Shown here piece after piece: positions 823 to 61,494 of a stretch of DNA of 64,000 bases; positions within the stretch are counted from its first letter, which is position 1, and every line of letters starts with the position of its first letter. Made by a program: the position numbers and the translations under genes. The notes beneath the pieces are model-generated. The model worked only from the letters and a program-made list of their open reading frames with translations, had not been told where the DNA came from and did no database searches. The DNA is from a virus (Duplodnaviria > Caudoviricetes): positions 4,390-68,389 of IMG/VR virus record IMGVR_UViG_3300033073_001753. One strand, 5' to 3'.

Positions 823-1682
823 TGTCAGCTTTTATGAATAAAAAGATAAAATTAGGTATATCATCTTCTGTATCATCAGGCACTCAAGCCGTAACAGGTG
901 CAGCAGATTTAACAATATTTAATACAAATGGAATTGATGTAGTAAGTGGACCTTCTCCTCATATATATTTTCCTACTTCTTCTACGATATATCTTCCAAA
1001 AGGATTTTATTATTTTGTTGAATGTTCTTTAAAAATGTATAGATCGACAAATGGAAATTATTTAGATTATGCCATAGTTGATAATTCAAATACAATATTG
1101 TCAAATACATCTAGAGTTACAATTGTAAGTGACGTAGGAGGTATTAACTTTTCATATCCTAGAAAAGCATATGCTTTTATTGATTGTATATCTTCTTCAA
1201 AAACAATTAAGATAAGAACACTTTCTACATATGATATAACATCAGCCATATCAGGAGTATCTTTGACAATAAATGGAAATCAAGATGCAACTTCTTCTAC
1301 GAATTTTGTGCATTCAGAACCTTTATCTCATATTATTATTAAATCATGGAATAGTAATAATTTTAATTCAAATATTAGATTGTCTTCAAGTCTTGTTGCT
1401 TTAACTTCAACATCACAATTGACGTCATCGGCTTTAAATAAATATCATACTTATTCATTGGTAAATACAGGATATGTATATTATATGCCTGTTAGTCCTA
1501 GTTTAAATGATGTAGTAGGATTTACACATCTTTCAGGCACAGGAAATTTTCAAGTAAGAAAAGATGCATCAAGTGTTTATTTAACTCCTGTATTGGATCT
1601 TTACTCTTTAAGAAAAACATATGTTTTTAAATGGGATGGTTCTGATTGGATTGATATAGGTGAATTTATTATTTCAAATTAA
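822..1682 (+). CDS. Tail fibre-associated structural protein
   Basis: The track's 807 start is TTG; ATG at 822 overlaps the upstream TAA and follows GGAG at 809-812. Ser/Thr-rich; C-terminal small beta module (YYMPVSPSLNDVV...FKWDGSDW) like those in the neighbouring genes. Confidence 0.5.
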   Translation: MSAFMNKKIKLGISSSVSSGTQAVTGAADLTIFNTNGIDVVSGPSPHIYFPTSSTIYLPKGFYYFVECSLKMYRSTNGNYLDYAIVDNSNTILSNTSRVTIVSDVGGINFSYPRKAYAFIDCISSSKTIKIRTLSTYDITSAISGVSLTINGNQDATSSTNFVHSEPLSHIIIKSWNSNNFNSNIRLSSSLVALTSTSQLTSSALNKYHTYSLVNTGYVYYMPVSPSLNDVVGFTHLSGTGNFQVRKDASSVYLTPVLDLYSLRKTYVFKWDGSDWIDIGEFIISN

Positions 1683-1718
1683 TTGAATATTTTTATATAT
1701 AAATCTAAAAGGATTAAA

Positions 1719-2483
1719 ATGACATTTCAGACATTAAAAACAGTAAAATCAAAAGCAATTGCTCCAGCATTTGTGAGTGGATCACATACAAATATATCTT
1801 TTACATATGACGCAAATAATCAAGTAGTAAATGCATCAGGATCTTTAGGTGGAGGTGGCGGAGGTTCTTCAACTGGATTAACTACAGTTTCTTCTTTTCC
1901 AGGTAATGCTTATACAATATCTTCACCTTCTAATTCTGAAGAAATATATTTAATATCAAATAGCTCAACTGCAGTTACAATTAATTTACCTACTTCTGTA
2001 GGATTAAATACCAAGAAAATAAGAATAAAAAGATTAGGAACTGCAAATGTAACAATTGACGCATATCAAACAGAAACAATTGATGGTCAATTAACAAAAA
2101 TATTAAATAATCAATATTCAACAATTACTCTAATAAGTGATAATTCAAATTGGTTTATTGTGAATGAAGCAGTTATTACAAATGAAGTACAAACTGTTTC
2201 AACTACGTCAACATTAAGTTTGACTAGCCCTAATACTTTAGTAAGATGTACAAATAGTTCAACAATCACATTAACTTTACCTACTGCTTCGACAGTACCT
2301 GGATATAGAATAGAAATAAAAAGATGTAGTACCGGTCAAATAAATATTGCAACATCTACTAATCAAATATTTTTAGATTCAACGACATTGATAGGTATAT
2401 CAAGTGGAACAATGTTAGTCTTAAATACTGTAGGTCAATCATGGACACTTATTGCACATGCTTCAGGTTGGGATGTAATATAA
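1719..2483 (+). CDS. Tail fibre/baseplate-linker protein with two T4 gp9/gp10-like small beta modules
   Basis: ATG 1719 follows AAGGA (the track's 1683 start is TTG). Gly linker GGGGGGSS, then two repeats: TINLPTS...RIKRLGTANVTID...TIDGQ...ITLISDNSNWFI and TLTLPTA...EIKRCSTGQINI...WTLIAHASGWDVI. Confidence 0.55.
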   Translation: MTFQTLKTVKSKAIAPAFVSGSHTNISFTYDANNQVVNASGSLGGGGGGSSTGLTTVSSFPGNAYTISSPSNSEEIYLISNSSTAVTINLPTSVGLNTKKIRIKRLGTANVTIDAYQTETIDGQLTKILNNQYSTITLISDNSNWFIVNEAVITNEVQTVSTTSTLSLTSPNTLVRCTNSSTITLTLPTASTVPGYRIEIKRCSTGQINIATSTNQIFLDSTTLIGISSGTMLVLNTVGQSWTLIAHASGWDVI

Positions 2484-2518
2484 ATATAAAATATATTTAA
2501 TTAAAAAGGAAATAAAAA

Positions 2519-3046
2519 ATGACATTTTACGCCTCATTAATGTATAAAGATGTAACATCAACTCCCGATGTATCGAATTCAAAGTCGCATTTATGGGAAC
2601 CTACATCTATTACAGTTGGCCCAACAGGTTTTACTATTAATAAAGTTTCATCAACACTATACAATCCTTTATTTTACAATTCTGACAATATCACACTTCC
2701 ATTTCAAGCTTCTTCTTGGACAGGAAATTATGCAAATTATGTAATTGTAAATAATGGTTCATCAAATTGGAATTTAACTTTACCTTTAGGTCCTGGAGGA
2801 GGAACAGGAACATATTCAAGTAAAACTATGCATATAACAATAAAGAAAACAGGATCTGGTACATTAACATTATCGACACCTGTAGATACTGTAGGAACTC
2901 GTATAAGAGGAATTAATACAACTTCAAATAAAAGTTATGTTATGTCTTCAAATACTGAACAAACTATAACTTTATTATACGTTTCTGGTTTAGATTCGAC
3001 AGGAGCAACATCAACGACATCAGAGATATGGTTTGTAATATCTTAA
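2519..3046 (+). CDS. Short tail-fibre-like protein, paralog of the N-terminal module of the next gene
   Basis: AAAGGA RBS; shares NNGSSNWNLTLPLGP and KTGSGTLTLSTP.DTVGTRIRGINTTSNKS with 3069..4286. Confidence 0.55.
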   Translation: MTFYASLMYKDVTSTPDVSNSKSHLWEPTSITVGPTGFTINKVSSTLYNPLFYNSDNITLPFQASSWTGNYANYVIVNNGSSNWNLTLPLGPGGGTGTYSSKTMHITIKKTGSGTLTLSTPVDTVGTRIRGINTTSNKSYVMSSNTEQTITLLYVSGLDSTGATSTTSEIWFVIS

Positions 3047-3519
3047 AAATAAAAAGGTAATAATAAAAATGACATTTTCAGGCGAATATTTTTTAAATAA
3101 TAAAGCAGGCAAAAGTACTAGCATCAATATTTCATCAGGCGTTTCTAGAAATTACGATAAACCTTCTTATGGTGTATCTGCATTAAATATAGCAGGATAT
3201 CCAAGTTTTTCACCTCATATTGTTAGTTCAGGGATTTCTACTACAACATTTATAAATAACAATAATACTATATTATCTAATTCTTCTACTAGTTATTTTT
3301 CATCATATGCAAATTATATTATTATAAATAATGGTTCATCAAATTGGAATTTAACTTTACCTTTAGGACCATCAACAGTAAGTACAACTTCTCCTTGGTC
3401 AAATAGTGGATTTGAGTTATATATAATTAAAACAGGATCTGGTACATTAACATTATCGACACCTGATGATACTGTAGGAACTCGTATAAGAGGAATTAAT
3501 ACAACTTCAAATAAAAGTT
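2748..3519 (+). repeat. Two-block direct repeat shared by adjacent genes: 43 bp identical (2748-2790 / 3325-3367) and 91 bp with 2 mismatches (2846-2936 / 3429-3519)
   Basis: Base-by-base comparison of the two copies. Confidence 0.9.
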
Positions 3520-4286
3520 TTATATTATCTTCTTCAAATAGACAAGTAATTAAATTATTATACTCATATAATATTGATAGTGATGGAAATACTGATACAA
3601 CATCTGAAATTTGGCATATTATACAAAATAGTATTTTAAATCCTAGTAATCAAAATGGTAGTTTATTATTTACTGGTACAACATCTTCATATTTAACAAT
3701 TGCAAATGATGAAGATTTGAGATTTGGAACAGGAGACTTTACAATTGAATGGTGGCAATATGAAACAGATAGTAATGCAAATCCTAGGATATTTTCAATG
3801 GGAACATATCCTTCTGCATCAATTGGTGTTTCTATAGAAGGGGGAACTTTTTATTTTTGGATAAATGGTTCACCAAATAGTTTAGGTTCGGCTGTTACTT
3901 ATAAAAATATATATACACATTTTGCAATAGCAAGATCGGGTAGTACAATTAAAGTATTCAAAAATGGAGTACAGTTAGGTTCTAATATTACATCTTCATA
4001 TAATTTTAATGATTCAACCAATGATTTAAGAATAGGTAATGAACAAACTATTTCTTCAAGTAGCTCTTTTGGTGGAAATATAAAAGGATTTCATTGGGTA
4101 AAAGGAACTGCACTTTATTCAACAACATTTAAACCTAATTATAATTCAATTACTCCACACGCTAATTCTAAATTATTATTAAATGTAGCAGATTCTTCGA
4201 ATTTAGTAACTGATTCTAGTGGATTAAATAAAACAGTAACAAATACTGGAGTTACATTTTCTACAATTACACATCCATTTTATTAA
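3069..4286 (+). CDS. Receptor-binding/tail-fibre protein with C-terminal LamG/ConA-like lectin domain
   Basis: FGTGDFTIEWWQY...RIFS...YTHFAIARSGSTIKVFKNG...LRIG...FGGNIKGFHWVKGTALYSTTF is the typical phage LamG-like pattern; AAAGGT RBS. Confidence 0.75.
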   Translation: MTFSGEYFLNNKAGKSTSINISSGVSRNYDKPSYGVSALNIAGYPSFSPHIVSSGISTTTFINNNNTILSNSSTSYFSSYANYIIINNGSSNWNLTLPLGPSTVSTTSPWSNSGFELYIIKTGSGTLTLSTPDDTVGTRIRGINTTSNKSFILSSSNRQVIKLLYSYNIDSDGNTDTTSEIWHIIQNSILNPSNQNGSLLFTGTTSSYLTIANDEDLRFGTGDFTIEWWQYETDSNANPRIFSMGTYPSASIGVSIEGGTFYFWINGSPNSLGSAVTYKNIYTHFAIARSGSTIKVFKNGVQLGSNITSSYNFNDSTNDLRIGNEQTISSSSSFGGNIKGFHWVKGTALYSTTFKPNYNSITPHANSKLLLNVADSSNLVTDSSGLNKTVTNTGVTFSTITHPFY

Positions 4287-4291
4287 AATAT

Positions 4292-4320
4292 TTGTATTTT
4301 TGAGTTATTTTTCTTATAAT
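4292..4320 (+). promoter_or_regulatory. Host sigma70-type promoter (TTGTAT-17 bp-TATAAT)
   Basis: TTGTAT at 4292-4297, 17 nt spacer, TATAAT at 4315-4320; intergenic, 23 nt upstream of the nuclease ATG with an AAGGT RBS. The AT-rich background lowers specificity. Confidence 0.55.
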
Positions 4321-4343
4321 TTTTTTATTTATAAAGGTAAATT

Positions 4344-5177
4344 ATGTCTCAATTATTAAAAGAACATGTTTCATATTCTGAAGTTCGAACATGGAAAGAT
4401 TGTTCATGGAAACATAAATTGTTGTATTTGGATAAAATTGAGACTTTTGAAGAAAGTCCACATTTGTATTATGGTAAAATTGTTCATGATGGTGTTGAAC
4501 ATTTTTTAAAGACAAAAGAATTAAAACTTTTAGAAGTAGAAGAAAATTTAAAAAGAGAATGGGTAAGGGTAGATTTTGATGGTAAGTGGAAAGAAGAGCA
4601 ACAACTTAAAAATAAAGACTATAAACATATCCAATTTAAAGATTGGTTATTATGGGCACAAAATAGTTTAAATGCATTACCAAAATGGATGGATGAAAAT
4701 TTTCCTAATTGGGAAACTGTTTCGGCTGAAGAAATGTTATATGAAGAATTGCAAGATTTACCTTTAAAGTTTAAAGGATTTATTGACTGTATTATTAAAG
4801 TACCTCAAAAAACTGAAGGTAAATGGAAATATTATATTCTGGACTGGAAAACAGCATCAGCTCGAGGTTGGGATTTAGAGAAAAAGCAAGATTTTTTAAC
4901 TCATATGCAATTATTGCTATATAAACATTTTTGGATGACAAAGAACAATTTAACATCTAGAGATGTACAATGTGCATTTGTTTTGTTAAAAAAAGTTTCA
5001 AATGTAGAAAAAGTATGTCAAATGATACCAATAAGTTCAGGACCCACTAGTATGGAAAATGCATTAAAAGTTGTTAGATCTATGATCAAAACAATTACAA
5101 AAGAAAATCCAATGTATTTAAAAAATAGAACTTCTTGTACTTATTGTCCATTTTACAATACTGATCATTGCAAATAA
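4344..5177 (+). CDS. Cas4/RecB-like PD-(D/E)XK exonuclease with probable 4Fe-4S cluster
   Basis: HVSYS...DC (N-terminal Cys), YYGKIVH, FKGFIDC, ILDWKT, QLLLY and C-terminal CTYCPF...C: the 1+3 Cys layout of Cas4/AddB-type nucleases. Confidence 0.85.
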   Translation: MSQLLKEHVSYSEVRTWKDCSWKHKLLYLDKIETFEESPHLYYGKIVHDGVEHFLKTKELKLLEVEENLKREWVRVDFDGKWKEEQQLKNKDYKHIQFKDWLLWAQNSLNALPKWMDENFPNWETVSAEEMLYEELQDLPLKFKGFIDCIIKVPQKTEGKWKYYILDWKTASARGWDLEKKQDFLTHMQLLLYKHFWMTKNNLTSRDVQCAFVLLKKVSNVEKVCQMIPISSGPTSMENALKVVRSMIKTITKENPMYLKNRTSCTYCPFYNTDHCK

Positions 5178-5206: not shown

Positions 5207-6466
5207 ATGAAAAAGAAAAAAATATTAATGATTAGTGATCATGCATTAACAACGTCAGGTGTTGCAACACAAAGTAGACATTTGATTGAGGGTTTATTAA
5301 AAACTAATCAATATCAAGTAATTCAATTAGGTGCAGCAGTTAGACATGAAAATTATAATATTGTTAAATTATCAGATGATTTTTTAATTAAACCTATTGA
5401 TGGATTCGGAAATAAAGAAATGATAAGAGGTTTATTAATATCTGAAAAACCTGATGCAATTTTAATATTTACAGATCCTAGATTTTTTACATATTTATTT
5501 GAAATGGAAGATGAAATTCATCAAGTTTGTCCTATATTGTATTGGCATGTTTGGGACAATAGACCAACTCCTCATTTTAATAAGAAATATTATGATGCAG
5601 TTGATACTATCAATTGTTTATCATATTTGACATATGAGATGTGTAAAGAAATTGTACCTGATAAAACATATTATATTCCTCATGCTATTCCTCAAAATAT
5701 GTTTTATCCTTTGAATGAAGATGAAATTGCAAAAAATAGACAAAAGTTGTTAGGAGATGAGAAAAAAGATTGGTTTGTATCTTTATGGGCAAATAGAAAT
5801 TGTAGAAGAAAAAGACCAGGTGATTTAATTTATTCATGGAAAAATTTTATTGATAGATTAGAAAAAGAGGAAGGTCATAGAAAAGCATTATTGATATGTC
5901 ATACTGAACCTTTTGATCATGAAGGTCAAGATTTAATGTATATTGCTAGACAATTAGGAATTGAAGATAATATTATTTATTCTAGAAATAAAATTGGATT
6001 TAATGAAATGAATATTTTGCATAATATTGTTGATTGTTATATTAATATTAGTTATGCTGAAGGATTTGGTTTAGGAACATTAGAAGCAATGCAATGTGGA
6101 AAACCAATTATTGCATTAACTACTGGAGGTCAAACAAGACAAATTATCGATTGGCGTGATAATTCTTTAAATGGTATTATGTTACCTGTTGAGTTTGCAA
6201 CATATTCAGGAAATCAAAATGCAAAACAAATTTTAGAAGATTTTGTGTCAGTTGAAACAATTGGAAAATCTTTATTTGACATGTACTTATTAGGTGTTGA
6301 AGGAAGAAAAAAATTAGGTCAAAAAGCAAGAGCATATGCATTATTTGAATTCAATTATGATGATATGATTAGAAATTGGGCAAATAGTATTAATGAAACA
6401 ATTAGTAATTGGAAATCAAAAAGAGAAAATTTTGAAATAGTAAATTTATTAGGTGAAAGGATTTAA
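5207..6466 (+). CDS. Glycosyltransferase, GT-B fold (GT4-like)
   Basis: ILMISDH...SGVATQSRHL at the N-terminus; NRNCRRKRPGDL; EGFGLGTLEAMQCGKPII (E-x7-E motif). ATG 5207 follows AAGGA; the track's 5168 start is TTG. Confidence 0.9.
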   Translation: MKKKKILMISDHALTTSGVATQSRHLIEGLLKTNQYQVIQLGAAVRHENYNIVKLSDDFLIKPIDGFGNKEMIRGLLISEKPDAILIFTDPRFFTYLFEMEDEIHQVCPILYWHVWDNRPTPHFNKKYYDAVDTINCLSYLTYEMCKEIVPDKTYYIPHAIPQNMFYPLNEDEIAKNRQKLLGDEKKDWFVSLWANRNCRRKRPGDLIYSWKNFIDRLEKEEGHRKALLICHTEPFDHEGQDLMYIARQLGIEDNIIYSRNKIGFNEMNILHNIVDCYINISYAEGFGLGTLEAMQCGKPIIALTTGGQTRQIIDWRDNSLNGIMLPVEFATYSGNQNAKQILEDFVSVETIGKSLFDMYLLGVEGRKKLGQKARAYALFEFNYDDMIRNWANSINETISNWKSKRENFEIVNLLGERI

Positions 6467-6470
6467 TTGA

Positions 6471-7694
6471 ATGAGTAAAATTTTATTTGAAGCACCAATA
6501 TTAACATATTCAGGTTATGGTGTTCATTGTCGACAAATATTTAATTGGTTATATGACAATGTTGATTCATTTGATTGTGTGTTAAATGAATGGGGATCCA
6601 GTAATTGGATAGTATCAGAAGATATTGAAGATGGTATTTTAAAGAAATTAAAAAGTGAAAAGGTTAAAATTGTTAATGCAAATAATCATCAATTAGAATA
6701 TTATGATTATTATATAAAGGTTTCTACACCTGTTGAATTTTCAAAAAAAGCCAAATATAATATTGGTATTACAGCAGGTATTGAAGTAGATATATGTGGA
6801 TCAAAAATTATTGATTCTTGCAATTTAATGGATTTAATAATTGTACCATCATCATTTGCAAAACAAACTTTGATAAATACTTCAAAGAAACGTGATATTG
6901 AATTAAAACCTAATATAGAAATTATTCATGAATATTTTCCATCAAATTGGAAGAAGTATAATAATGAGTTTAAATTTAATATTGATGAAGAATTGAATAA
7001 AATTAAAACGGATTTTAATTTTTTATTGGTAGGACAAATTGCAATATTAACTCAATATGAAAGAAAAAATATGTTGAATTCAATATTGACATGGATTAAA
7101 GCTTTTAAAGACAATGAAAAAGTAGGATTAATTATTAAAACAAATTTGTCAAATTTTTCAAAGGATAATACATCCCGTTTATTAGGTGATTTAAATAACA
7201 TCTTTAAGGATATACCTTTATCTGTTAAAAAAAGAATTCACCTGATTAACGGGAGATTAGATGAATCAGAAATGTATAAATTATATACTCACACAAAGGT
7301 TTCATGTTTATATAATTTAGCGTATGCTGAAGGATTTTGTTTACCCGCTTTAGAAGCAGCCAGTGTAGGATTACCTGTTATAATTAGTTCATGGTCAGGT
7401 CAATGTGATTTTATGGATTTAACAGAAAAAAGAATTAGATTTAATCATAAGATAGACAATATTCAAAATGAATTTTTATCAGCGTGGGGTGGAATGTATT
7501 TAGATATGTTTGTTAAAGATTCAAAATGGGCATATCCTGAGTATGATGATGTGATTAAGAAAATGCAAAAGTTTTATGATCAACCTACTTTACCTAGACA
7601 ATGGGCAATGGATTTAAAAGAAAAAGTTAATGAAAAATTTTCAAAAGAAAAAATTGAAAAAGATTATAAAAGAATATTAGGATTTATAATATAA
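6471..7694 (+). CDS. Second glycosyltransferase, GT-B fold (GT4-like)
   Basis: APILTYSGYGVHCRQI; FNFLLVGQ...ERKNM; YAEGFCLPALEAASVGLPVI. Confidence 0.9.
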   Translation: MSKILFEAPILTYSGYGVHCRQIFNWLYDNVDSFDCVLNEWGSSNWIVSEDIEDGILKKLKSEKVKIVNANNHQLEYYDYYIKVSTPVEFSKKAKYNIGITAGIEVDICGSKIIDSCNLMDLIIVPSSFAKQTLINTSKKRDIELKPNIEIIHEYFPSNWKKYNNEFKFNIDEELNKIKTDFNFLLVGQIAILTQYERKNMLNSILTWIKAFKDNEKVGLIIKTNLSNFSKDNTSRLLGDLNNIFKDIPLSVKKRIHLINGRLDESEMYKLYTHTKVSCLYNLAYAEGFCLPALEAASVGLPVIISSWSGQCDFMDLTEKRIRFNHKIDNIQNEFLSAWGGMYLDMFVKDSKWAYPEYDDVIKKMQKFYDQPTLPRQWAMDLKEKVNEKFSKEKIEKDYKRILGFII

Positions 7695-7712
7695 AAAAAA
7701 GGTAATATCTCA

Positions 7713-8030
7713 ATGATATATATAATTATAATTTTATCGCTTCTTTTAATGATAGCTATTTACTTTGCAATTAAATTTGCATTAATAATAATAAATATTC
7801 AAGAAATAATTGAGGAAAGCTTGGATATTTTAGATGAAAAATATTCGATAATATCAAATATTTTATCGATACCAATCTTTTATGATTCAAAGGAGATAAA
7901 AGAAGTATTAAATGAAATAAAAGGTGTTAGAGATGCAATATTATACATCGCACAAAAATTATCATCAAATAGAGAAAAAATAGAAGAAGATGAAGACATA
8001 TATAAAACTGATTCGCAAAAAGAGAGTTGA
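7713..8030 (+). CDS. Small membrane-anchored coiled-coil protein
   Basis: Hydrophobic N-terminus (MIYIIIILSLLLMIAIYFAIKFALIII) followed by an acidic helical segment; AAGGT RBS. Confidence 0.6.
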   Translation: MIYIIIILSLLLMIAIYFAIKFALIIINIQEIIEESLDILDEKYSIISNILSIPIFYDSKEIKEVLNEIKGVRDAILYIAQKLSSNREKIEEDEDIYKTDSQKES

Positions 8031-8895
8031 TGAAGAAGGAAATTTGATTGTAGAACAGCCTAAAATTCCTGAAATAATCGAAGTTGTAAAAGTAAAATCA
8101 AAAAGAGGAAGAAAACCTAAAAATCAACAATTAACAACTCAAATATCTTCTCCTATAGATACTAAAGAAAATGTGAATATTGTCAAAAAAGAACCAGATA
8201 CGATGTATTTTTCAGATTTAACTCAAAAAAAAATTATGGAATATAAAAGTACAATTCGTGAAGATGAAAAAAGTAAAATCTACTTTGAATTTATTTATCC
8301 TGCATTTGAAACATTAGTTAATAAATTAATATCAGTTTATAATTTTAAATCTTTTGATGAAGAATTACAACATATGAAAAAAGATTGTATTTTCTTTTTA
8401 TTTGAAACAATACATAAATGGGATGAGTCAAAAGGTAAAAGAGCATTTTCTTATTTTAATGTTGTAGCAAAAAATTGGTTAATAATGAGATCAAAACAAA
8501 ATTACAATTATTCAAAAAGAAACGTCCAAGTTGAAGATTCTATTGATTTTTTGAATAAAAGTGAAATGTTAGGAATCAATGATAAATTAATTGATCCTAA
8601 AATGCCAGATGATGAAATTGTATATCATGAAAAATTTTTAGGTATTTTAGATATGATCGATTATATTGAAGATAAAGTTCATGATGAAAGAGATAAAAAA
8701 TGTATTGATACAATTAGAGTTGTATTTCAAAATATTGACAATTTAGAGTTCTTAAATAAGAAAGCTTTGTTTATTTATATGAGAGAAATTTCAGGATTAA
8801 ATAGTAATGAGTTAAGTGCATCTTTATCTAATATTCGTAAACATTATAAATATTATAAAGAATTAGAAGATGATGATAAAATTGATTGGTTGTGA
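7990..8895 (+). CDS. Phage late-transcription sigma factor, T4 gp55-like
   Basis: MYFSD...PAFETLVNKLI...KDCIFFL...KWDESKGKRAFSYFNVVAKNWLI resembles the gp55 sigma-2 region pattern (FD..K..(N/A)F(A/S)YF); lies directly before the structural block. Exact start uncertain. Confidence 0.65.
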   Translation: MKTYIKLIRKKRVDEEGNLIVEQPKIPEIIEVVKVKSKRGRKPKNQQLTTQISSPIDTKENVNIVKKEPDTMYFSDLTQKKIMEYKSTIREDEKSKIYFEFIYPAFETLVNKLISVYNFKSFDEELQHMKKDCIFFLFETIHKWDESKGKRAFSYFNVVAKNWLIMRSKQNYNYSKRNVQVEDSIDFLNKSEMLGINDKLIDPKMPDDEIVYHEKFLGILDMIDYIEDKVHDERDKKCIDTIRVVFQNIDNLEFLNKKALFIYMREISGLNSNELSASLSNIRKHYKYYKELEDDDKIDWL

Positions 8896-8904
8896 GATTA
8901 AATT

Positions 8905-9282
8905 ATGTCAAAAGAAATAAATATTGATGATATTTTTCAAAAAGATAAAAAAATAGAAAAAATAAAGAATTTTAGTAATATTTTAGACAGTATTGATTCC
9001 TTAGAAGACAAGAAAAAGCTTTTGTGGAAAGAAATATATGAAAATGCAATTGAGGATAGAGAAAAAGCTAAAATTCTATTTACGGATTGTTATCAGTCAA
9101 TGGCATTATCAACGTTGTCAGATCATATTGCTGCTGGTCAAATTATGGCAAAGTACATTGAAAGAATGTCTAAATCAAATGATCAAATTTTAAAACTTGC
9201 TGAACTTATTGCAAATGCACAAGCAAAAGATGAAGCTGTTAGTGATGATGATATATTTTTAAAAATATCACAAGGAAAATAA
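8905..9282 (+). CDS. Helical conserved phage protein, candidate small terminase subunit (gp16-like)
   Basis: 125 aa, two long helices (IYENAIEDREKA..LF; MAKYIERMSKSNDQILKLAELI) loosely resembling the gp16 oligomerisation hairpin. The function is inference only. Confidence 0.35.
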   Translation: MSKEINIDDIFQKDKKIEKIKNFSNILDSIDSLEDKKKLLWKEIYENAIEDREKAKILFTDCYQSMALSTLSDHIAAGQIMAKYIERMSKSNDQILKLAELIANAQAKDEAVSDDDIFLKISQGK

Positions 9283-11073
9283 ATGTTTATAAGAGCTAGA
9301 GTAATTGAAGTTATATCACATCCTTATATATTAAATGATTCAAATATTAATAAATTGATGCAAGACAAAGATCTTAAATTGACTAATAGTAAAAATATGA
9401 ATTTAATAAAAGATCTTCCTAGGAATTCTATTATTGCACAAATTATTAACGATAATTCTAGAGTAATTGCATTGCCTTTCTTTTCTTCGCATATAAGTTT
9501 ACCTTTAAAACCAGGTGAAAATGTCTGGTTATTTAAAGAAGAAATAGCTGATGGAGCAAATACCCAAGATGAAGTTGAATTTTTTTGGATGTCTAGAATT
9601 CATGGAATGAATTTTTATGAAGATTTAAATTTTACACATGATGATAGAAGATTTCTTAAGAAATATAGTGATAGAAGAGACGGAGAATTATCTCTAAAAA
9701 ATGAAATAAAAATGTTGGAAAATAATATTACTTTAAATAGTGATATTCCTGTTGCACAATTTAATGATGGGCCAATTTATAATACAACTACTGGAAAAAT
9801 TAAAGATCCTTCTAGCAGAACCGGTATTAATACAAAAAGTTTAAACATATCAGGAAAATATATATTAGAGGATGTTCCTCGTTATACAAAAAATCCAGGT
9901 GATTTTATAATTCAAGGCTCAAATAATACATTAATTAAATTAGGAAGTAATTTTGCAAATTCAGCAAATGAAATATTAAATACAGTAAATACACCATTTG
10001 CATATAATAATCCAAATAAATATTCAGGTACAATTGATATAGTTGCAGGAAGAGCAGCAATTTCAAAAGAATATTTAAATATTAGCGAGTTGAGAGGATA
10101 TAAATTAAATAATAGACAAATTTATGTCAATAAAGTTTCAACAAAAGCTTATAGAAATGGTTATTTGTCTGTTTTAAATGAAAAAAATGAATTTGAAAAT
10201 ATGAAAGATCCTAAATATTTTTTAGGAAATAATTCTGAAAATATTGGAGAAGGTGATCCAGACTTTTTTACAGATATTAGTAGAATTTATATATCTGAAA
10301 AATGTAATGGTGATCAATTATTAAATATAAAATCAATACAAAATGTAACCAATGCAACTATTCCTGTTAAAACTTCATTTCAATCTACTACTGATCGTGG
10401 TTATATAATTGCAAAATCAGATGAAATTAGAATTATTGCTCGAGGAAAAGTATTTAATGTAACAAATAATGGATCCTTTAATTTAAATGAAAATAGTATA
10501 TATCAAAATTCAGGTGGTTCAATTAGATTAATTAAAGAAGGAGACGATAATAGTACTTGTCATTTAATATTAGAACAACAAGGTAATGTATTATTAAATG
10601 GTCAAAAAATTGTTATTGGTGATGAAGCAAAAGTTAAAGAAAATGGAAAAGGTGAACAGGTATTTATAGGTCATGGTGCAAAAGAACCTTTAGTTTTAGG
10701 TTATTTTTTAAAAAATAAATTAGAAAATTTTATGAACGAAGTATGTAAGGCTTTGGTTTTAATTAGTAAAAATTTAGATGAAATAAATACTAATTTTAAT
10801 CAACATACTCATCCATATGCAGGTGTAGCAGGTAATACTGCGCCTACTCCTAATTTAATAACAAAATCATTAATTAGTCCAAATCCTTCATCTTCTATTG
10901 ATTATGAAAAAATAACAGAAATTGCATTAAATCAAGAAGAAGGTCAATATGGTCCTATAGAAGGAATAACAAATGATGTAGGAAGTGATACTATATCATC
11001 AAAAATTGATCAAATTATGAAAATAAAATCTGATTTGAATGAAATATTAAGCACATTAGGAAGAACTTTATGA
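9283..11073 (+). CDS. Baseplate central spike/hub protein (gp5/gpV-like, no lysozyme recognised)
   Basis: ALPFFSSHISLPLKPGENVWL (OB-fold LP..GE.V.L motif), GDFIIQGSNNTLIKLG beta-helix start, EPLVLG, HTH near the C-terminus; upstream of gp25/gp6. Confidence 0.7.
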   Translation: MFIRARVIEVISHPYILNDSNINKLMQDKDLKLTNSKNMNLIKDLPRNSIIAQIINDNSRVIALPFFSSHISLPLKPGENVWLFKEEIADGANTQDEVEFFWMSRIHGMNFYEDLNFTHDDRRFLKKYSDRRDGELSLKNEIKMLENNITLNSDIPVAQFNDGPIYNTTTGKIKDPSSRTGINTKSLNISGKYILEDVPRYTKNPGDFIIQGSNNTLIKLGSNFANSANEILNTVNTPFAYNNPNKYSGTIDIVAGRAAISKEYLNISELRGYKLNNRQIYVNKVSTKAYRNGYLSVLNEKNEFENMKDPKYFLGNNSENIGEGDPDFFTDISRIYISEKCNGDQLLNIKSIQNVTNATIPVKTSFQSTTDRGYIIAKSDEIRIIARGKVFNVTNNGSFNLNENSIYQNSGGSIRLIKEGDDNSTCHLILEQQGNVLLNGQKIVIGDEAKVKENGKGEQVFIGHGAKEPLVLGYFLKNKLENFMNEVCKALVLISKNLDEINTNFNQHTHPYAGVAGNTAPTPNLITKSLISPNPSSSIDYEKITEIALNQEEGQYGPIEGITNDVGSDTISSKIDQIMKIKSDLNEILSTLGRTL

Positions 11074-57976: not shown

Positions 57977-59944
57977 ATGTCAAATTTTACATTACAACAA
58001 TTAACAGAAGGTATCCGTCAAAGACACGTTGGTACCAGCAATAAAAGATTAGTAGAAAAGTGGACCCGTACAGGTCTTCTTCGTGGTTTGGAAGATGTTA
58101 ACAGAGAAAATATGGCAACCTTGCTCGAAAACCAAGCAAGCCAACTTCTTCGTGAAGCAAATACAATTAGTTCTGGTGATATCAAAGGTTTTACCTCTAT
58201 CGCATTTCCTATCGTTCGTCGTGTATTCGGTGGTCTTGTAGCAAATGAATTAGTTTCTATTCAACCAATGAGTCTTCCATCTGGTCTCTTGTTTTATCTA
58301 GATTACACCTATGGTTCAAATGTTGGTGGTGAGGCAGGTGCTTCAACTTATGCATCTGGTTCTTCTATTTATAATAATCCAGTAGGTAAAGGTATTCAAT
58401 CTGGTTCTTTAGCAACTGGTGGTCAATATGATTTAGTTGGTTCTGGTTTCTCTAAACTTCATACAAAAGCTTTAGGTACAACATTAGTAGCTATGGAATT
58501 AGGTACAGCTGCTGATGCTACTGCTGCAGATACATTTACAGTTGCAAATGCAGATTTTGGTGCAGTTGGTGCAGACACTGGCACAGCATTAACATCTTCA
58601 AAATTATTAGATCCTACTAAAGCTGCAGATGCTAAAATTATGCAATTTGATAGTCAAATTGCAGATCAAATTACAGCCGGTACACATAAATATATTGCAT
58701 TTATTCTTAAATTAGCAAGTGGTAGAAATCATGCTAATGATGCAGCTTATAATCCTTTTGCGACTTTAGGTGCAGATTTGACAATGGTTAAAGATATTAG
58801 TTTACTTCTAACAGCTGTTAATTCGGATACAGGATTATCAAATAGTTTAAAGCCTGTTGATGCAGCAACACAATCAGGCAAAAATGTTTGGAATGTTAGA
58901 CGTTTAAATCAACTTGGTACTTGGGATGGTACTAATTGGGTTGCAAATCCTTTTGTAGAAGCTTCTACTACAAATGCTGCGGTGCTTTTTGTATGTAGAG
59001 TAAATGCTGCATTAACTAATGCATATGCATTTGCTGATGATAATATTCATGTAAGTTTTGTTAAGTCAGACGCTTTGAGTATTACATCTGGTATTCCTGA
59101 AACTGTTGTAACTCCTGGTTTTGAATCAGATATGGCAGCAGGTACACCTAGTCCAGTAATTCCTGAAATTGACATTAAGATTGAATCAATTCCAGTGACC
59201 ACATCAACTCGTAAGTTAAGAGCTAGATGGTCTCCTGAATTGGCTCAAGACCTTAATGCATACCATTCATTGGATGCTGAGGTTGAATTGACCCAAATTC
59301 TTTCCGAACAAATTGCTCTTGAAATTGATCGTGAAATCTTGAATGATCTTCTTACCGGTGCTCAAGGTGCAAACTTCTTCTGGTCTCGTGCTCCTGGTAA
59401 GTTTGTAAACAAGAGAACTGGTGCTGAAATCGCTCGTACTTCTACCCTTACACCTGGTCCTGCATTTACTGGTACCGTACGTGAATGGTATGAAACCTTG
59501 ACCGAAACCATTATCGATGTTGCTAATGAAATTCATAGAAAGACACTTCGTGGTTCTGCAAACTTTATCGTTGTATCCCCAGATGTTGCAACCGTACTTG
59601 AAGCTTCCGTACTTTATAGACCACTATATAGTATTGATGGTGATGGTCAAGTTTCTGGTCCATTTACCATGGGTGCAGAAAAGATTGGTACCTTAAGTAA
59701 TAGATTTACTGTTTACAAGGATCCATACTTCCCAAGAAATAAGATTCTTGTAGGTTACAAAGGTGGTTCTTACTTGGAGACTGGTTTTGTCTATGCTCCT
59801 TATGTACCTCTAATCGTAACTCCTACCATTTTTGCACCAGAAGATTTCACTCCTCGTAAGGGTGTAATGACTCGTTATGGTAAGAAGATGGTACGTGCTG
59901 ACTTCTATGGTACTGTAACTTGTTTGGATATGAACATCATCTAA
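57977..59944 (+). CDS. Major capsid protein (T4 gp23-like)
   Basis: AFPIVRRVFGGLVANELVSIQPMSLPSGLLFYLD; IPEIDIKIES; RKLRARWSPELAQDL.A.H.LDAEVEL..ILS..I..EIDREI; GTL..RF.VY.DPY; YAPYVPL; GVMTRYG; AGGAG RBS. Confidence 0.97.
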   Translation: MSNFTLQQLTEGIRQRHVGTSNKRLVEKWTRTGLLRGLEDVNRENMATLLENQASQLLREANTISSGDIKGFTSIAFPIVRRVFGGLVANELVSIQPMSLPSGLLFYLDYTYGSNVGGEAGASTYASGSSIYNNPVGKGIQSGSLATGGQYDLVGSGFSKLHTKALGTTLVAMELGTAADATAADTFTVANADFGAVGADTGTALTSSKLLDPTKAADAKIMQFDSQIADQITAGTHKYIAFILKLASGRNHANDAAYNPFATLGADLTMVKDISLLLTAVNSDTGLSNSLKPVDAATQSGKNVWNVRRLNQLGTWDGTNWVANPFVEASTTNAAVLFVCRVNAALTNAYAFADDNIHVSFVKSDALSITSGIPETVVTPGFESDMAAGTPSPVIPEIDIKIESIPVTTSTRKLRARWSPELAQDLNAYHSLDAEVELTQILSEQIALEIDREILNDLLTGAQGANFFWSRAPGKFVNKRTGAEIARTSTLTPGPAFTGTVREWYETLTETIIDVANEIHRKTLRGSANFIVVSPDVATVLEASVLYRPLYSIDGDGQVSGPFTMGAEKIGTLSNRFTVYKDPYFPRNKILVGYKGGSYLETGFVYAPYVPLIVTPTIFAPEDFTPRKGVMTRYGKKMVRADFYGTVTCLDMNII

Positions 59945-59977
59945 TATTTAATACTAGATAATAGTTTAATAACTTTA

Positions 59978-60001
59978 GGGAGTAGCAATACTCCCTTTTT
60001 T
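59978..60001 (+). terminator. Rho-independent terminator after the MCP
   Basis: GGGAGTA-GCAA-TACTCCC (7 bp stem, GNRA loop) followed by T6. Confidence 0.9.
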
Positions 60002-60072
60002 ATTTTATAAGACCATGTAAAGGTTAAATGACATACTTAAAATTAAAATAAAATTTAAGATAAGGTAAAAAT

Positions 60073-61494
60073 ATGTCATGTTTAATTTGTAATATTGATC
60101 TAGAAGGTAAAAAGTTAAGTAATCATATTAAAACTAATCATGGTTTAAATTCAGAAGAATATAGTATTAAATACATTTATAATAATAAAAAACCTATATG
60201 TCTTAATTGTGGTAATCAAACTAGATATGTCGCGTTTTCATACAAAGAATATTGTAAAGATTGTAGTCATATAGCTATGAAAATGGGTGGTAAAAAAGGT
60301 GGAAAAGCAGAAGCGTGGAATAAAGGAAAAACTAAAGAAAATGATAAAAGATTATTACAATATTCAGAAAAAATGTCAGGTGAAAATAATCCTTTCTATA
60401 ATAAACATCATAATGAAGAAACAAAGAATAGAATTAGTTTATCGAAAAGATTAGGTAATCATGAATTAATTCAGAGAATAATTGAAAGAAATGTAGATTT
60501 TGAATTATTAACTCCTTTAAATGAATATTTCAGTAGACAACAACAATACTTGGATTTTAAATGTAAAAAATGTAATAATATATCTAAAAAAACATTACAA
60601 AGTTTTGAAAGAGGTTCTAGGTGTTATATCTGTAATCCAATTGGAACTTCTAATGATGAAATAGAAATATTAAACTATGTTAAAAAAATAACACAGAATA
60701 AAAAAGAAATAAAGCATAAAGATAGAAAAGAAATATCACCTAAAGAAATTGATATATTAATTGAAAATGTAGGTATTGAGTACAATGGTTTATATTGGCA
60801 TTCAGATAATATAAAAGAAAATGACATTGAAGAATATAATAAAGGACATATGTTATTAAAAACAAAATTGTGTTTAGAAAAAGATATATCATTAATTCAT
60901 ATATTTTCAGATGAATGGAAATATAAAAAAGAAATTTGCAAATCGATTATATTAAATAAACTGAAATTAAATTCAAATAAAATATTTGCTAGAAAATGTA
61001 ATATTGTCGAATTAAGTAATGATCAATTTAATAAATTTTTAGATGAAAATCATATATCTGGAAGTGTTAAATCTTCTATTAGATTAGGATTAATATATGA
61101 AAATAAAGTTGTGAGTGTATTAGGTTTAAGAAAACCATTGCAAAAGAAGTGGAACGAATATTATGAAATAAGTAGATTTGCTAGTCAATTAAGTACAAAT
61201 GTAGTAGGTGGATTAAGTAAATTTATAAAATATATTGAAAAAGAATTAAAAATAACAAATATTATGACTTATGCTGATCGTAGATTTGGTGAAGGTAAAA
61301 GTTATGAAAAATGTGGATTTAAATTAATTGGTGATACTGGAATTGATTATTGGTATACTGATTGTGATACAAGAATTGATAGATCAAAAATAAAAGCTAA
61401 AGATGGTAAATCCGAGTTAGAAATTGCAAATGAATCTGGATTTTTAAAAATACATGGGTGTGGAAGTAATATATATATAAAAACTAATATTTGA
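60073..61494 (+). mobile_element. Free-standing putative homing endonuclease (Hef-like): zinc fingers, NUMOD3-like DNA-binding motifs, PD-(D/E)XK/Vsr-like nuclease, possible GNAT/Mom-like C-terminus
   Basis: C2H2 finger CLIC...HIKTNH; CLNC...CKDC; AWNKGKTKE, SGENNPFYNKHH; CKKC...CYIC; EIDI...IEYNGLYWHS; IHIFSDEW; KIFARKC...ENHISG...EISRF...YADRRF...GF. Confidence 0.7.

Follow-up and report, generated by a model that had tools for sequence, protein, structure and literature searches.

A probable Hef-like homing endonuclease with a Mom-related GNAT domain, encoded next to the major capsid gene in an uncultured T4-like phage

The stretch of DNA analysed here (the window; 64,000 nucleotides, positions 4,390 to 68,389 of IMG/VR record IMGVR_UViG_3300033073_001753) derives from an uncultured T4-like phage. 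The record is a 68-kb fragment that contains a single copy of the endonuclease gene described below; related contigs with close homologues are ∼270 kb long. The original prediction, made from the letters of the sequence, placed the ORF at 60073–61494 after the terminator of the major capsid protein (MCP) gene; we confirm exactly these coordinates, on the plus strand. The features of the locus, including the domains of the putative homing endonuclease gene (HEG), are as follows.

57977–59944, plus strand: gp23-type MCP gene (Pfam Gp23, E = 9e-76)
59977–60006, plus strand: MCP intrinsic terminator with an 8-bp stem, a GCAA loop and a T-run
60018–60040, plus strand: apparent relic of the cassette 5′ motif ACC-N-AAGGT-(A)TAATGA (seen when the 80 nt 5′ of the HEG were compared among 13 loci)
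60073–61494, plus strand: complete ORF of 473 amino acids (PHROG 3339), assigned to the free-standing Hef-like (EDxHD) homing endonucleases and carrying a Mom-like GNAT domain
60073–60177, plus strand: N-terminal C2H2-type zinc finger, Ros/MucR-like (C3, C6, H18, H23)
60199–60270, plus strand: second zinc-binding module (C43, C46, C61, C64), from conservation and a pLDDT of >90
60370–60438, plus strand: NUMOD3 nuclease-associated DNA-binding motif, residues 100–122 (Pfam PF07460)
60550–60642, plus strand: zinc ribbon directly N-terminal of the nuclease (C164, C167, C184, C187)
60649–60963, plus strand: Vsr-like PD-(D/E)xK nuclease of the EDxHD type, residues ∼193–297
60964–61491, plus strand: Mom-like GNAT domain, residues 298–473

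The MCP gene is a plausible source of the endonuclease target, and its last ∼90 nt are near-invariant among relatives in a 3′-end alignment of 61 loci. Its terminator consists of a hairpin at 59977–59996 with the T-run next to it (one site observed compared with 0.0 expected in shuffled sequence). The HEG cassette starts directly past this terminator and spans ∼1.45 kb up to the next gene, with the ORF beginning 128 nt past the MCP stop codon. In most of the related cassettes (13 loci compared), the 5′ motif is found immediately upstream of the ATG. The gene on the 3′ side of the HEG (orf594) and the genes downstream in a close relative that lacks the HEG (L004) gave no family match.

The ORF matches PHROG 3339 (‘homing endonuclease’) along its full length with an E value of 3e-78. 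Used alone as a query, the window protein returned nothing meaningful from the PDB with phmmer and a weak match only from NCBIfam (XF1762-family, E = 0.002). Mean identity is 48–60% in each of four protein regions, i.e. conservation is roughly even. The N-terminal finger has a weak match to ROS_MUCR in Pfam that lies under the cut-off (E = 0.0016), and its ligands are conserved in 95–97% of 88 homologues. Three ligands of the second zinc-binding module are 97–99% conserved, and position 64 is cysteine in 54 and histidine in 30 of the 88 sequences. The NUMOD3 motif was recognized with 30 bits against a cut-off of 20.4 (E = 5.1e-7), and the four cysteines of the zinc ribbon that precedes the nuclease are retained in 87–88 of the 88 homologues.

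The nuclease domain carries the residues of the EDxHD set: E225, D227, E236, H243, D245, K263, D280 and E281. In the 88 homologues, conservation is at least 98% for E225, D227, E236, H243, K263 and D280 (99–100% for E225, D227 and H243) and 95% for E281, and position 245 is aspartate or glutamate in 86%. A search of the PDB with the family profile matched the catalytic domain of I-Bth0305I (3R3P, E = 2.7e-4), and homologues match the Pfam families Vsr, MTES_1575 and DUF559, all below threshold. Hef-type enzymes have been assigned to the EDxHD family (Taylor et al., 2011; PMC3239194).

The C-terminal third of the protein is confirmed as a relative of phage Mu Mom with the GNAT fold. The domain begins at about residue 298–303 (60964–60979), and its AF2 model has a pLDDT of 94.7. 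All of the best PDB matches of this domain are GNATs, with Mu Mom (8BV8) ranked first by Foldseek at an E value of 3.2e-7. Alignment to 8BV8 using VIA-align gave a Z score of 13.8 for 155 aligned residues, including the C-terminal insertion; this score is statistically tied with those of other GNATs (13.3 for N-terminal acetyltransferases), and the alignment to Mom is the longest. At the sequence level, the window protein itself has no match to Pfam Mom (PF25680) at E ≤ 1, a 74% identical homologue (P0005) reaches 31.8 bits, above the cut-off of 27.1, and another (P0053) falls just under it. Comparison of the family profile with the Mom-family profile by hhalign gave a probability of 93.3% and an E value of 2.7e-7, and the profile search of the PDB by sequence retrieved GCN5 (E = 3e-5) and not Mom. 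Our searches for the Mom-like domain yielded more than 15,000 cluster representatives. The domains proposed in the original prediction (zinc fingers, NUMOD3, Vsr-type nuclease and Mom-like GNAT) are therefore right as judged by Pfam, profile, Foldseek, hhalign and VIA-align comparisons, and the C-terminal motifs that it listed (NH.SG, E..R, GG.SK, YADRR and G..Y...GF) are conserved columns of the family.

The active site of Mom comprises H58, Y59, R111, S124, D149, R151 and Y159 (PMC13219725). Six of these seven residues are kept in the window protein, and Y59 is replaced by isoleucine. The equivalent pairs (Mom numbering second) are H327=H58, E365=E108, R368=R111, S382=S124, D402=D149, R404=R151 and Y411=Y159. 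Among the 88 homologues, H327, E365, R368 and Y411 are 99–100% conserved and D402 and R404 are 95–98% conserved; S382 is conserved in 72%, with the serine varying in about 25%. Two paralogues and the T-even Hef have asparagine in place of the D149 equivalent; this substitution, together with the variation at the S124 equivalent, indicates that GNAT catalysis is not universal in the family. The dimer residue W48 of Mom and W181 have no equivalents in the window protein. Its insertion (approximately residues 430–457) is shorter and forms one helix with conserved R434, R437 and E448, through which the structural alignment passes.

These comparisons bear on a reading in which the domain modifies no DNA and is either a catalytically inert scaffold that serves to bind DNA, flip bases or dimerize, or an acetylase of proteins or small molecules. 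The tied structural scores, the retrieval of GCN5 rather than Mom, the variability of S382 and D402 in parts of the family, the loss of both tryptophans and the shortening of the HTH-like insertion that Mom needs would all suit such a role. It is less easily reconciled with the near-complete conservation of H327, E365, R368 and Y411 (and, to a slightly lesser extent, of D402 and R404) in the clade, with the retention of R111, which is specific to Mom and not shared by GNATs generally (PMC7261163), or with the fact that the longest structural alignment is that to Mom. We regard this reading as a sizeable possibility, somewhat short of an even chance. A TacT-like toxin, i.e. a GNAT acting on aminoacyl-tRNA, was set aside, as DNA is the substrate suggested by the fusion partner, by the DNA-binding modules and by the Mom-specific residues.

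Among 61 distinct related MCP loci, the HEG is present in 13 and missing from 48, and the gene is therefore not fixed. Two observations named in the original prediction as speaking against it, a fold other than GNAT and a fixed gene, are thus not what we find. In 12 of the 13 loci it is located ∼100–150 nt past the MCP stop codon, and in the remaining one (L047) it is ∼1 kb past. When mapped on the MCP tree, its presence and absence require at least 8–9 gains or losses. Comparison of L061, which carries the HEG, with L059 and L051, which do not, reveals a clean insertion or deletion of the cassette, and broken copies are found in L088 (internal deletion) and L089 (in-frame stop). HEG copies at 82% and 74% identity occupy the same post-MCP site. 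A search for stand-alone Hef-type GNAT proteins, whose existence would have favoured an enzymatic role independent of the nuclease, yielded short matches (P0133 and P0236) that are pieces of broken full-length genes. The patchy distribution at one site fits a selfish homing gene and not a fixed gene. Homing into MCP-flanking sites, one of the roles suggested in the original prediction, accords with the 13 occupied loci, the repeated changes, the clean indel and the degenerate copies. The HEG and MCP trees are largely congruent; therefore, the patchiness could also stem from a single old insertion that was subsequently lost many times, and not from ongoing mobility. Over the final 90 nt of the MCP coding sequence, no nucleotide differences between HEG-containing and HEG-lacking genomes that might serve as immunity polymorphisms are evident.

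We consider it likely that the gene is a free-standing HEG belonging to the Hef-like branch within the Vsr-type EDxHD family, carried as a ∼1.45-kb post-MCP cassette that homes. The comparisons above establish the domain identities, residue conservation, family membership and patchy same-site distribution; cleavage, a target site, homing and any DNA modification are inferred, along the following lines. The N-terminal zinc fingers and NUMOD3 would bind a long conserved target in HEG-less genomes, most plausibly within the invariant capsid-gene 3′ end or just past it. The Vsr-like nuclease would cut this target, probably as a dimer like I-Bth0305I, and recombinational repair during co-infection would copy the cassette into the HEG-less genome. 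The Mom-like GNAT domain may engage an adenine flipped out of the same DNA and so act in cis. On balance, we lean towards the domain merely recognizing or holding DNA or aiding dimerization; the domain might in addition attach an acyl or aminoacyl group to DNA, which we are slightly inclined to doubt.

If the domain does modify DNA, it might, in line with the self-protecting element suggested in the original prediction, mark an adenine in the endonuclease's own target, such that the carrier genome is spared and unmarked genomes without the HEG are cut. Under this self-immunizing arrangement the target would stay intact in HEG-containing genomes, because the cassette lies beside and not inside it. 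The MCP 3′ end upstream of the cassette is nearly identical in genomes with and without the HEG; a target located there would therefore persist in the carrier genome. The retention of the Mom-specific R111, D149 and R151 in the window clade and the presence of a GNAT domain in every paralogue are further points in its favour. However, free-standing HEGs of the T4 type manage with target polymorphisms, the T-even Hef has asparagine at the D149 position, and a marker and a cutter fused in one chain and acting on one site would need a kinetic rule. Self-immunization by the GNAT domain appears rather unlikely.

The family to which the window protein belongs is large, with more than 1000 full-length homologues, and about 370–417 matching records from cultured phages are annotated as Hef, Hef-like or homing endonuclease. 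The annotation ‘Hef-like’ is found in RaK2, CP81/CP220, LIMEstone and Acj9-type phages. There are five copies in the genome of PA5oct and 10–12 in those of Campylobacter phages, and in such multi-copy genomes each paralogue adjoins a conserved gene. A GNAT domain is present in every one of 14 complete paralogues from PA5oct and CP81, and almost all keep the pocket residues, which points to an enzyme-specific role and not to one genome-wide function. Selection has kept the GNAT domain as an integral component throughout the family, together with the substrate-pocket residues of Mom. In the T-even phages LH2 and FL12, a homologue with 34% identity over the nuclease and GNAT domains (E = 2e-31) is located between nrdA and nrdB; it is linked to the experimentally defined Hef by position and annotation and not by the sequence of the U5 Hef. 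The Hef of T-even phage U5 is reportedly that of Sandegren et al. from 2005. The position of Hef is nrdA–nrdB and the enzyme cleaves nrdB (PMC2988022). The window protein is thus a Hef-like family member, and its domain fusion is widespread and already described.

The Mom–nuclease fusion, together with a restriction-modification (R-M) reading of it, was published by Iyer, Anantharaman, Krishnan, Burroughs and Aravind (2021; PMC7824862) for the same family in jumbo phages; therefore, the Mom assignment made by eye in the original prediction is right and not new, and its suggestion of a one-gene R-M system had likewise been proposed before. The ‘five momylating enzymes’ of PA5oct in that study correspond to the five places found by our searches. 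According to this model, the Mom domain hypermodifies phage adenines while the nuclease degrades unmodified host or competitor DNA, and no homing takes place. The single-chain architecture of a nuclease and a DNA-modifying-type domain, with the catalytic residues of both conserved, is formally that of a single-chain R-M enzyme (type IIC/IIG-like), and Mu Mom shields DNA against many restriction enzymes (PMC13219725). The gene does not, however, behave as a defence or offence locus, for which one system per specificity and no tie to the junctions of conserved genes would be expected. NUMOD3 and the variable N-terminal DNA-binding modules are hallmarks of homing; the intergenic cassettes adjoin conserved essential genes and are present or absent at one site; the gene is missing from most relatives (48 of the 61 loci); and the family includes positional orthologues of the experimentally defined Hef, in which the D149 equivalent is asparagine. 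Up to ten intact paralogues in one genome would be redundant for genome-wide modification, and the multi-copy, HEG-like distribution of the family argues against a classical R-M role. We consider an R-M weapon to be quite improbable.

Few selfish genes of large phages are as abundant as those of Hef-like endonucleases, and the same proteins have entered two incompatible literatures, one on homing endonucleases and the other on ‘momylase’ restriction-modification fusions. The chemistry of Mom was solved in 2026: charged Gly-tRNA(Gly) donates glycine to N6 of adenine in double-stranded DNA. The function of the Hef-type GNAT domain has thus become directly testable. An active domain would add a second DNA-hypermodifying branch to the GNATs and give homing elements a new means of avoiding self-cleavage, whereas an inert one would clearly exemplify the reuse of an enzyme fold for DNA recognition. 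Were the domain an immunity module, a hybrid logic of homing and restriction-modification would be repeated in each Hef-like paralogue, and the element could adjoin an essential, invariant target and yet escape its own nuclease, while rivals without the mark were cut and converted. In practical terms, the ORF at 60073–61494 of the window can now be firmly annotated.

Compared with known systems, the nuclease recalls I-Bth0305I (3R3P), the prototype of the EDxHD homing endonucleases, which has a Vsr-like nuclease with the E, D, H and D residues and N-terminal DNA-binding modules of the NUMOD type; it differs in being intron-encoded, in having its nuclease at the C-terminus and in lacking a GNAT domain. 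Among solved structures, that of Mu Mom (8BV8) is closest to the GNAT domain, with seven residue equivalents, at just ∼19–21% identity. The HTH-like insertion of Mom (residues 175–209), which is essential for momylation, is longer than that of the window protein, and the glycine-rich GG.SK loop of the window domain seems closer to the CoA loop of ordinary GNATs. Furthermore, Mom is a stand-alone protein under Com control, whereas the window domain is fused to a nuclease.

Hef and the Hef-like proteins share with the window protein the nuclease-plus-GNAT core and the habit of a free-standing gene adjoining a conserved gene, and the copies in PA5oct, RaK2 and CP81 are 33–35% identical to it. The N-terminal part of the window protein is distinct, with a C2H2 finger, two zinc ribbons and NUMOD3. 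The T-even Hef additionally differs in its site (nrdA–nrdB compared with post-capsid) and in the D149 equivalent, which is asparagine there and aspartate in the window protein. The genomic niche, the intergenic space 3′ of the major capsid gene, is the same as that of T4 segD, a free-standing GIY-YIG HEG immediately downstream of gene 23; its nuclease family is unrelated and it has no GNAT domain. Finally, the ‘Momylase-REase’ fusions of jumbo phages (Iyer et al., 2021) belong to the same protein family as the window protein and were read as R-M-like weapons, whereas our results, like the literature on Hef, favour homing endonucleases.

The predicted gene was recovered at exactly its original coordinates, as an open reading frame of 473 residues that starts 128 nt past the stop codon of the gene for the gp23-type major capsid protein (MCP; Pfam Gp23, E = 9e-76). 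An intrinsic terminator followed by a T-run separates the two (one found versus 0.0 in shuffled sequence), and the G+C content falls from 36–40% in the capsid gene to 20–24% in the reading frame. It is the single copy of a Hef-like gene (after Hef, the T-even homing endonuclease defined between nrdA and nrdB) in the 68-kb fragment of the IMG/VR viral contig, the window included. The nearest cultured relatives of the capsid protein are those of Flavobacterium phages of the 'immuto' type (45% identity); closer ones are found in metagenomic contigs of ~270 kb.

Features of the window at and beyond the capsid gene
59150–59944: sequence for the C-terminal ~267 capsid residues
59977–59996: intrinsic terminator
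60018–60040: apparent relic of a conserved ~25-nt motif
60073–61494, plus strand: Hef-like gene, 473 residues
61498–63282: reading frame of 594 residues
63336–63698: small gene, T5orf172/MUG113 domain, 120 residues
63714–63986: adjoining small gene, GIY-YIG domain, 90 residues

The 594-residue reading frame starts 3 nt past the Hef-like gene and matched no Pfam or PHROG family; within the fetched loci, similarity is confined to a sequence of 32% identity (L083–L085), so that the reading frame evolves fast. Both small genes belong to nuclease-associated families, and the GIY-YIG gene is conserved irrespective of whether a relative carries the Hef-like gene.

An AlphaFold2 model of the protein, built with an 88-sequence alignment, is confident (mean pLDDT 90.4) and comprises the following parts.

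Parts of the 473-residue protein
C3, C6, H18, H23: N-terminal C2H2-type finger, weak Ros/MucR match
C43, C46, C61, C64: second zinc module
Residues 100–122: NUMOD3 motif (E = 5e-7, above the Pfam cut-off)
C164, C167, C184, C187: zinc ribbon
Residues 193–297 (approximate): nuclease
Residues 298–473: C-terminal domain

The family profile matches the catalytic domain of I-Bth0305I (PDB 3R3P, E = 2.7e-4), the prototype of the Vsr-like EDxHD homing endonucleases (PMC3239194), and homologues match Pfam Vsr, MTES_1575 and DUF559 below threshold. Nuclease residues E225, D227, E236, H243, K263 and D280 are 98–100% conserved among the 88 homologues, and E281 is 95% conserved.

The C-terminal domain had been assigned by eye to a GNAT fold resembling Mom, the DNA-modifying enzyme of phage Mu, and four lines of evidence uphold this assignment. 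Pfam Mom (PF25680) passes its gathering score in a 74%-identical homologue (31.8 versus 27.1 bits), another homologue being matched by a generic GNAT model. Foldseek with the whole model ranked the Mom crystal structure (PDB 8BV8) first (E = 3.2e-7). The domain folded alone (pLDDT 94.7) aligned with 8BV8 in VIA-align with a Z score of 13.8 over 155 residues, a score statistically tied with those of N-terminal acetyltransferases (Z ~13, ~130 aligned); Mom gave the longest alignment, which spans the C-terminal insertion, and the highest identity. Finally, hhalign of the Hef-type domain profile against one built from 37 true Mom proteins gave a probability of 93.3% (E = 2.7e-7) over Mom residues 35–181, and equates H327, E365, R368, S382, D402, R404 and Y411 with Mom H58, E108, R111, S124, D149, R151 and Y159. 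All of these except E108 are listed as lining the active site in a 2026 structural and mutational study, in which R111, S124 and R151 are essential (PMC13219725); R111 is Mom-specific rather than general to GNATs (PMC7261163). Among the 88 homologues H327, R368 and Y411 are invariant, E365, R404 and D402 are 99, 98 and 95% conserved, and S382 is conserved in just 72%.

The domain nevertheless departs from Mom in several respects. The Y59 position is Ile, the dimer residue W48 and also W181 have no equivalent, and the counterpart of the HTH-like insertion required by Mom is shorter, with R434, R437 and E448 conserved in it. The glycine-rich loop GG.SK looks closer to the CoA-pyrophosphate loop of ordinary GNATs, and the family profile matched GCN5 and not Mom in a sequence search of the PDB, so that the donor substrate is not predictable.

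Eighty loci with related capsid genes were fetched, and the 61 that were distinct and had sufficient downstream sequence were scored. The gene is present in 13 of them, about 100–150 nt past the capsid stop in 12 and about 1 kb past it in the other (L047). On the capsid-protein tree its distribution requires nine changes, at least eight of them being forced by well-supported branches, compared with 12 for random labels. A carrier (L061) differs from loci lacking the gene (L059 and L051) by a clean cassette of ~1.45 kb, bounded by the terminator and a conserved element preceding the next gene, and copies 82 and 74% identical to that of the window occupy the same place. Two degenerate copies were found, one with an internal deletion of about residues 100–220 (L088:2356–3546) and one interrupted by a single in-frame stop immediately ahead of the nuclease motif (L089:884–2191). 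This pattern fits the invasion, decay and loss cycle of homing endonucleases; it argues against a fixed, vertically inherited gene and makes homing by the window protein likely, as judged from the same-site patchy distribution, the cassette indel and the broken copies. Ten full-length copies give a tree that largely agrees with that of the capsid protein, and the data are thus equally compatible with an old insertion followed by many losses and with homing between close relatives only. In every locus the final 90 nt of the capsid gene hardly vary, and no carrier-specific differences occur there across the loci compared.

Gene callers split off the C-terminal pieces of the two degenerate copies as short 'Mom-only' proteins in their own right. 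A conserved ~25-nt motif, ACC-N5-7-AAGGT-ATAATGA-ATG, which includes the ribosome-binding site, marks the 5' edge of the cassettes and lies directly upstream of the start in L003, L005, L007, L024, L027, L061 and L074; in the window and L083 it is an apparent relic, ~45 nt ahead of the start codon now in use. The gene following the capsid locus is preceded, with or without the cassette, by a conserved ~60-nt G+C-rich element, TAGGCCCG.CACAT.GCATA.GGTGA...GCCACCG..CGGAATCATGC, which may be a 5'-UTR structure.

Copies of the ~60-nt element
L059:8020–8080
L051:7030–7095
L061:9487–9545

The C-terminal part of the capsid protein is 96–97% identical among the window, L004 (without the gene) and L083 (with it), compared with 74–85% for the N-terminal part, which could reflect purifying selection or co-conversion beside the cassette. 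Three loci (L066, L068 and L069; about 974–4840 and 6001–9867) hold two tandem MCP paralogues, each 61–62% identical to the window MCP.

Iyer et al. (PMC7824862) proposed for these same proteins that momylation, the adenine modification made by Mom, shields the phage and that the nuclease is directed at host or rival DNA, so the restriction–modification idea of the original prediction is a published one; the five such enzymes that they counted in phage PA5oct are the five places matched here. Campylobacter Fletcherviruses carry 10–12 copies per genome and RaK2-like phages 3–4. Protective marking of the whole genome by the domain would take just one copy, and paralogues would be expected to decay, yet nearly every one of the 14 complete paralogues in PA5oct and CP81 has kept the residue pattern H...E..R...GG.SK...(D/N)(R)(R)...Y; PA5oct L093 (Q for E365, GA.GK) and L101 (SQNE for ADRR) deviate from it. 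Together with the about equal conservation of the protein's four regions, this suggests a role tied to each enzyme's own action. The equivalent of Mom D149 is Asn in T-even Hef and two paralogues, and Mom-type catalysis is thus probably not universal in the family. We propose that the GNAT domain probably engages DNA in cis, with a flipped adenine as the probable contact. That it also transfers a group to DNA in this clade is a tentative suggestion, and an attractive case, transfer with a mark that would shield the element's own intact target, seems half as likely.

The protein matches PHROG 3339 ('homing endonuclease') end to end (E = 3e-78) and has more than 1000 full-length homologues in metagenomes. 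The C-terminal domain alone retrieved 15,232 cluster representatives, in which it is nearly always C-terminal in proteins of 300–900 residues. The 417 cultured-phage records matched are annotated as Hef, Hef-like homing endonuclease, homing endonuclease or 'nuclease/acetyltransferase'. The family is very common, and both the nuclease–GNAT architecture and the restriction–modification hypothesis are already published. The T-even phages LH2 and FL12 have a homologue between nrdA and nrdB, with 34% identity to the window protein over the nuclease and GNAT (E = 2e-31). The downstream nrdB is annotated in two pieces in both phages (LH2, L086:3022–4791; FL12, L087), separated by a small homing endonuclease ORF, as fits the known nrdB intron; several mobile elements thus share this locus. 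In phage U5, Hef replaces mobE at the nrdA–nrdB locus and cuts nrdB from there (PMC2988022), and Taylor et al. had earlier assigned enzymes of the Hef type to the EDxHD family (PMC3239194). The nuclease–GNAT core therefore corresponds to the core of Hef, and the window protein is, on its sequence, a new member of the Hef family with its own N-terminal DNA-binding set.
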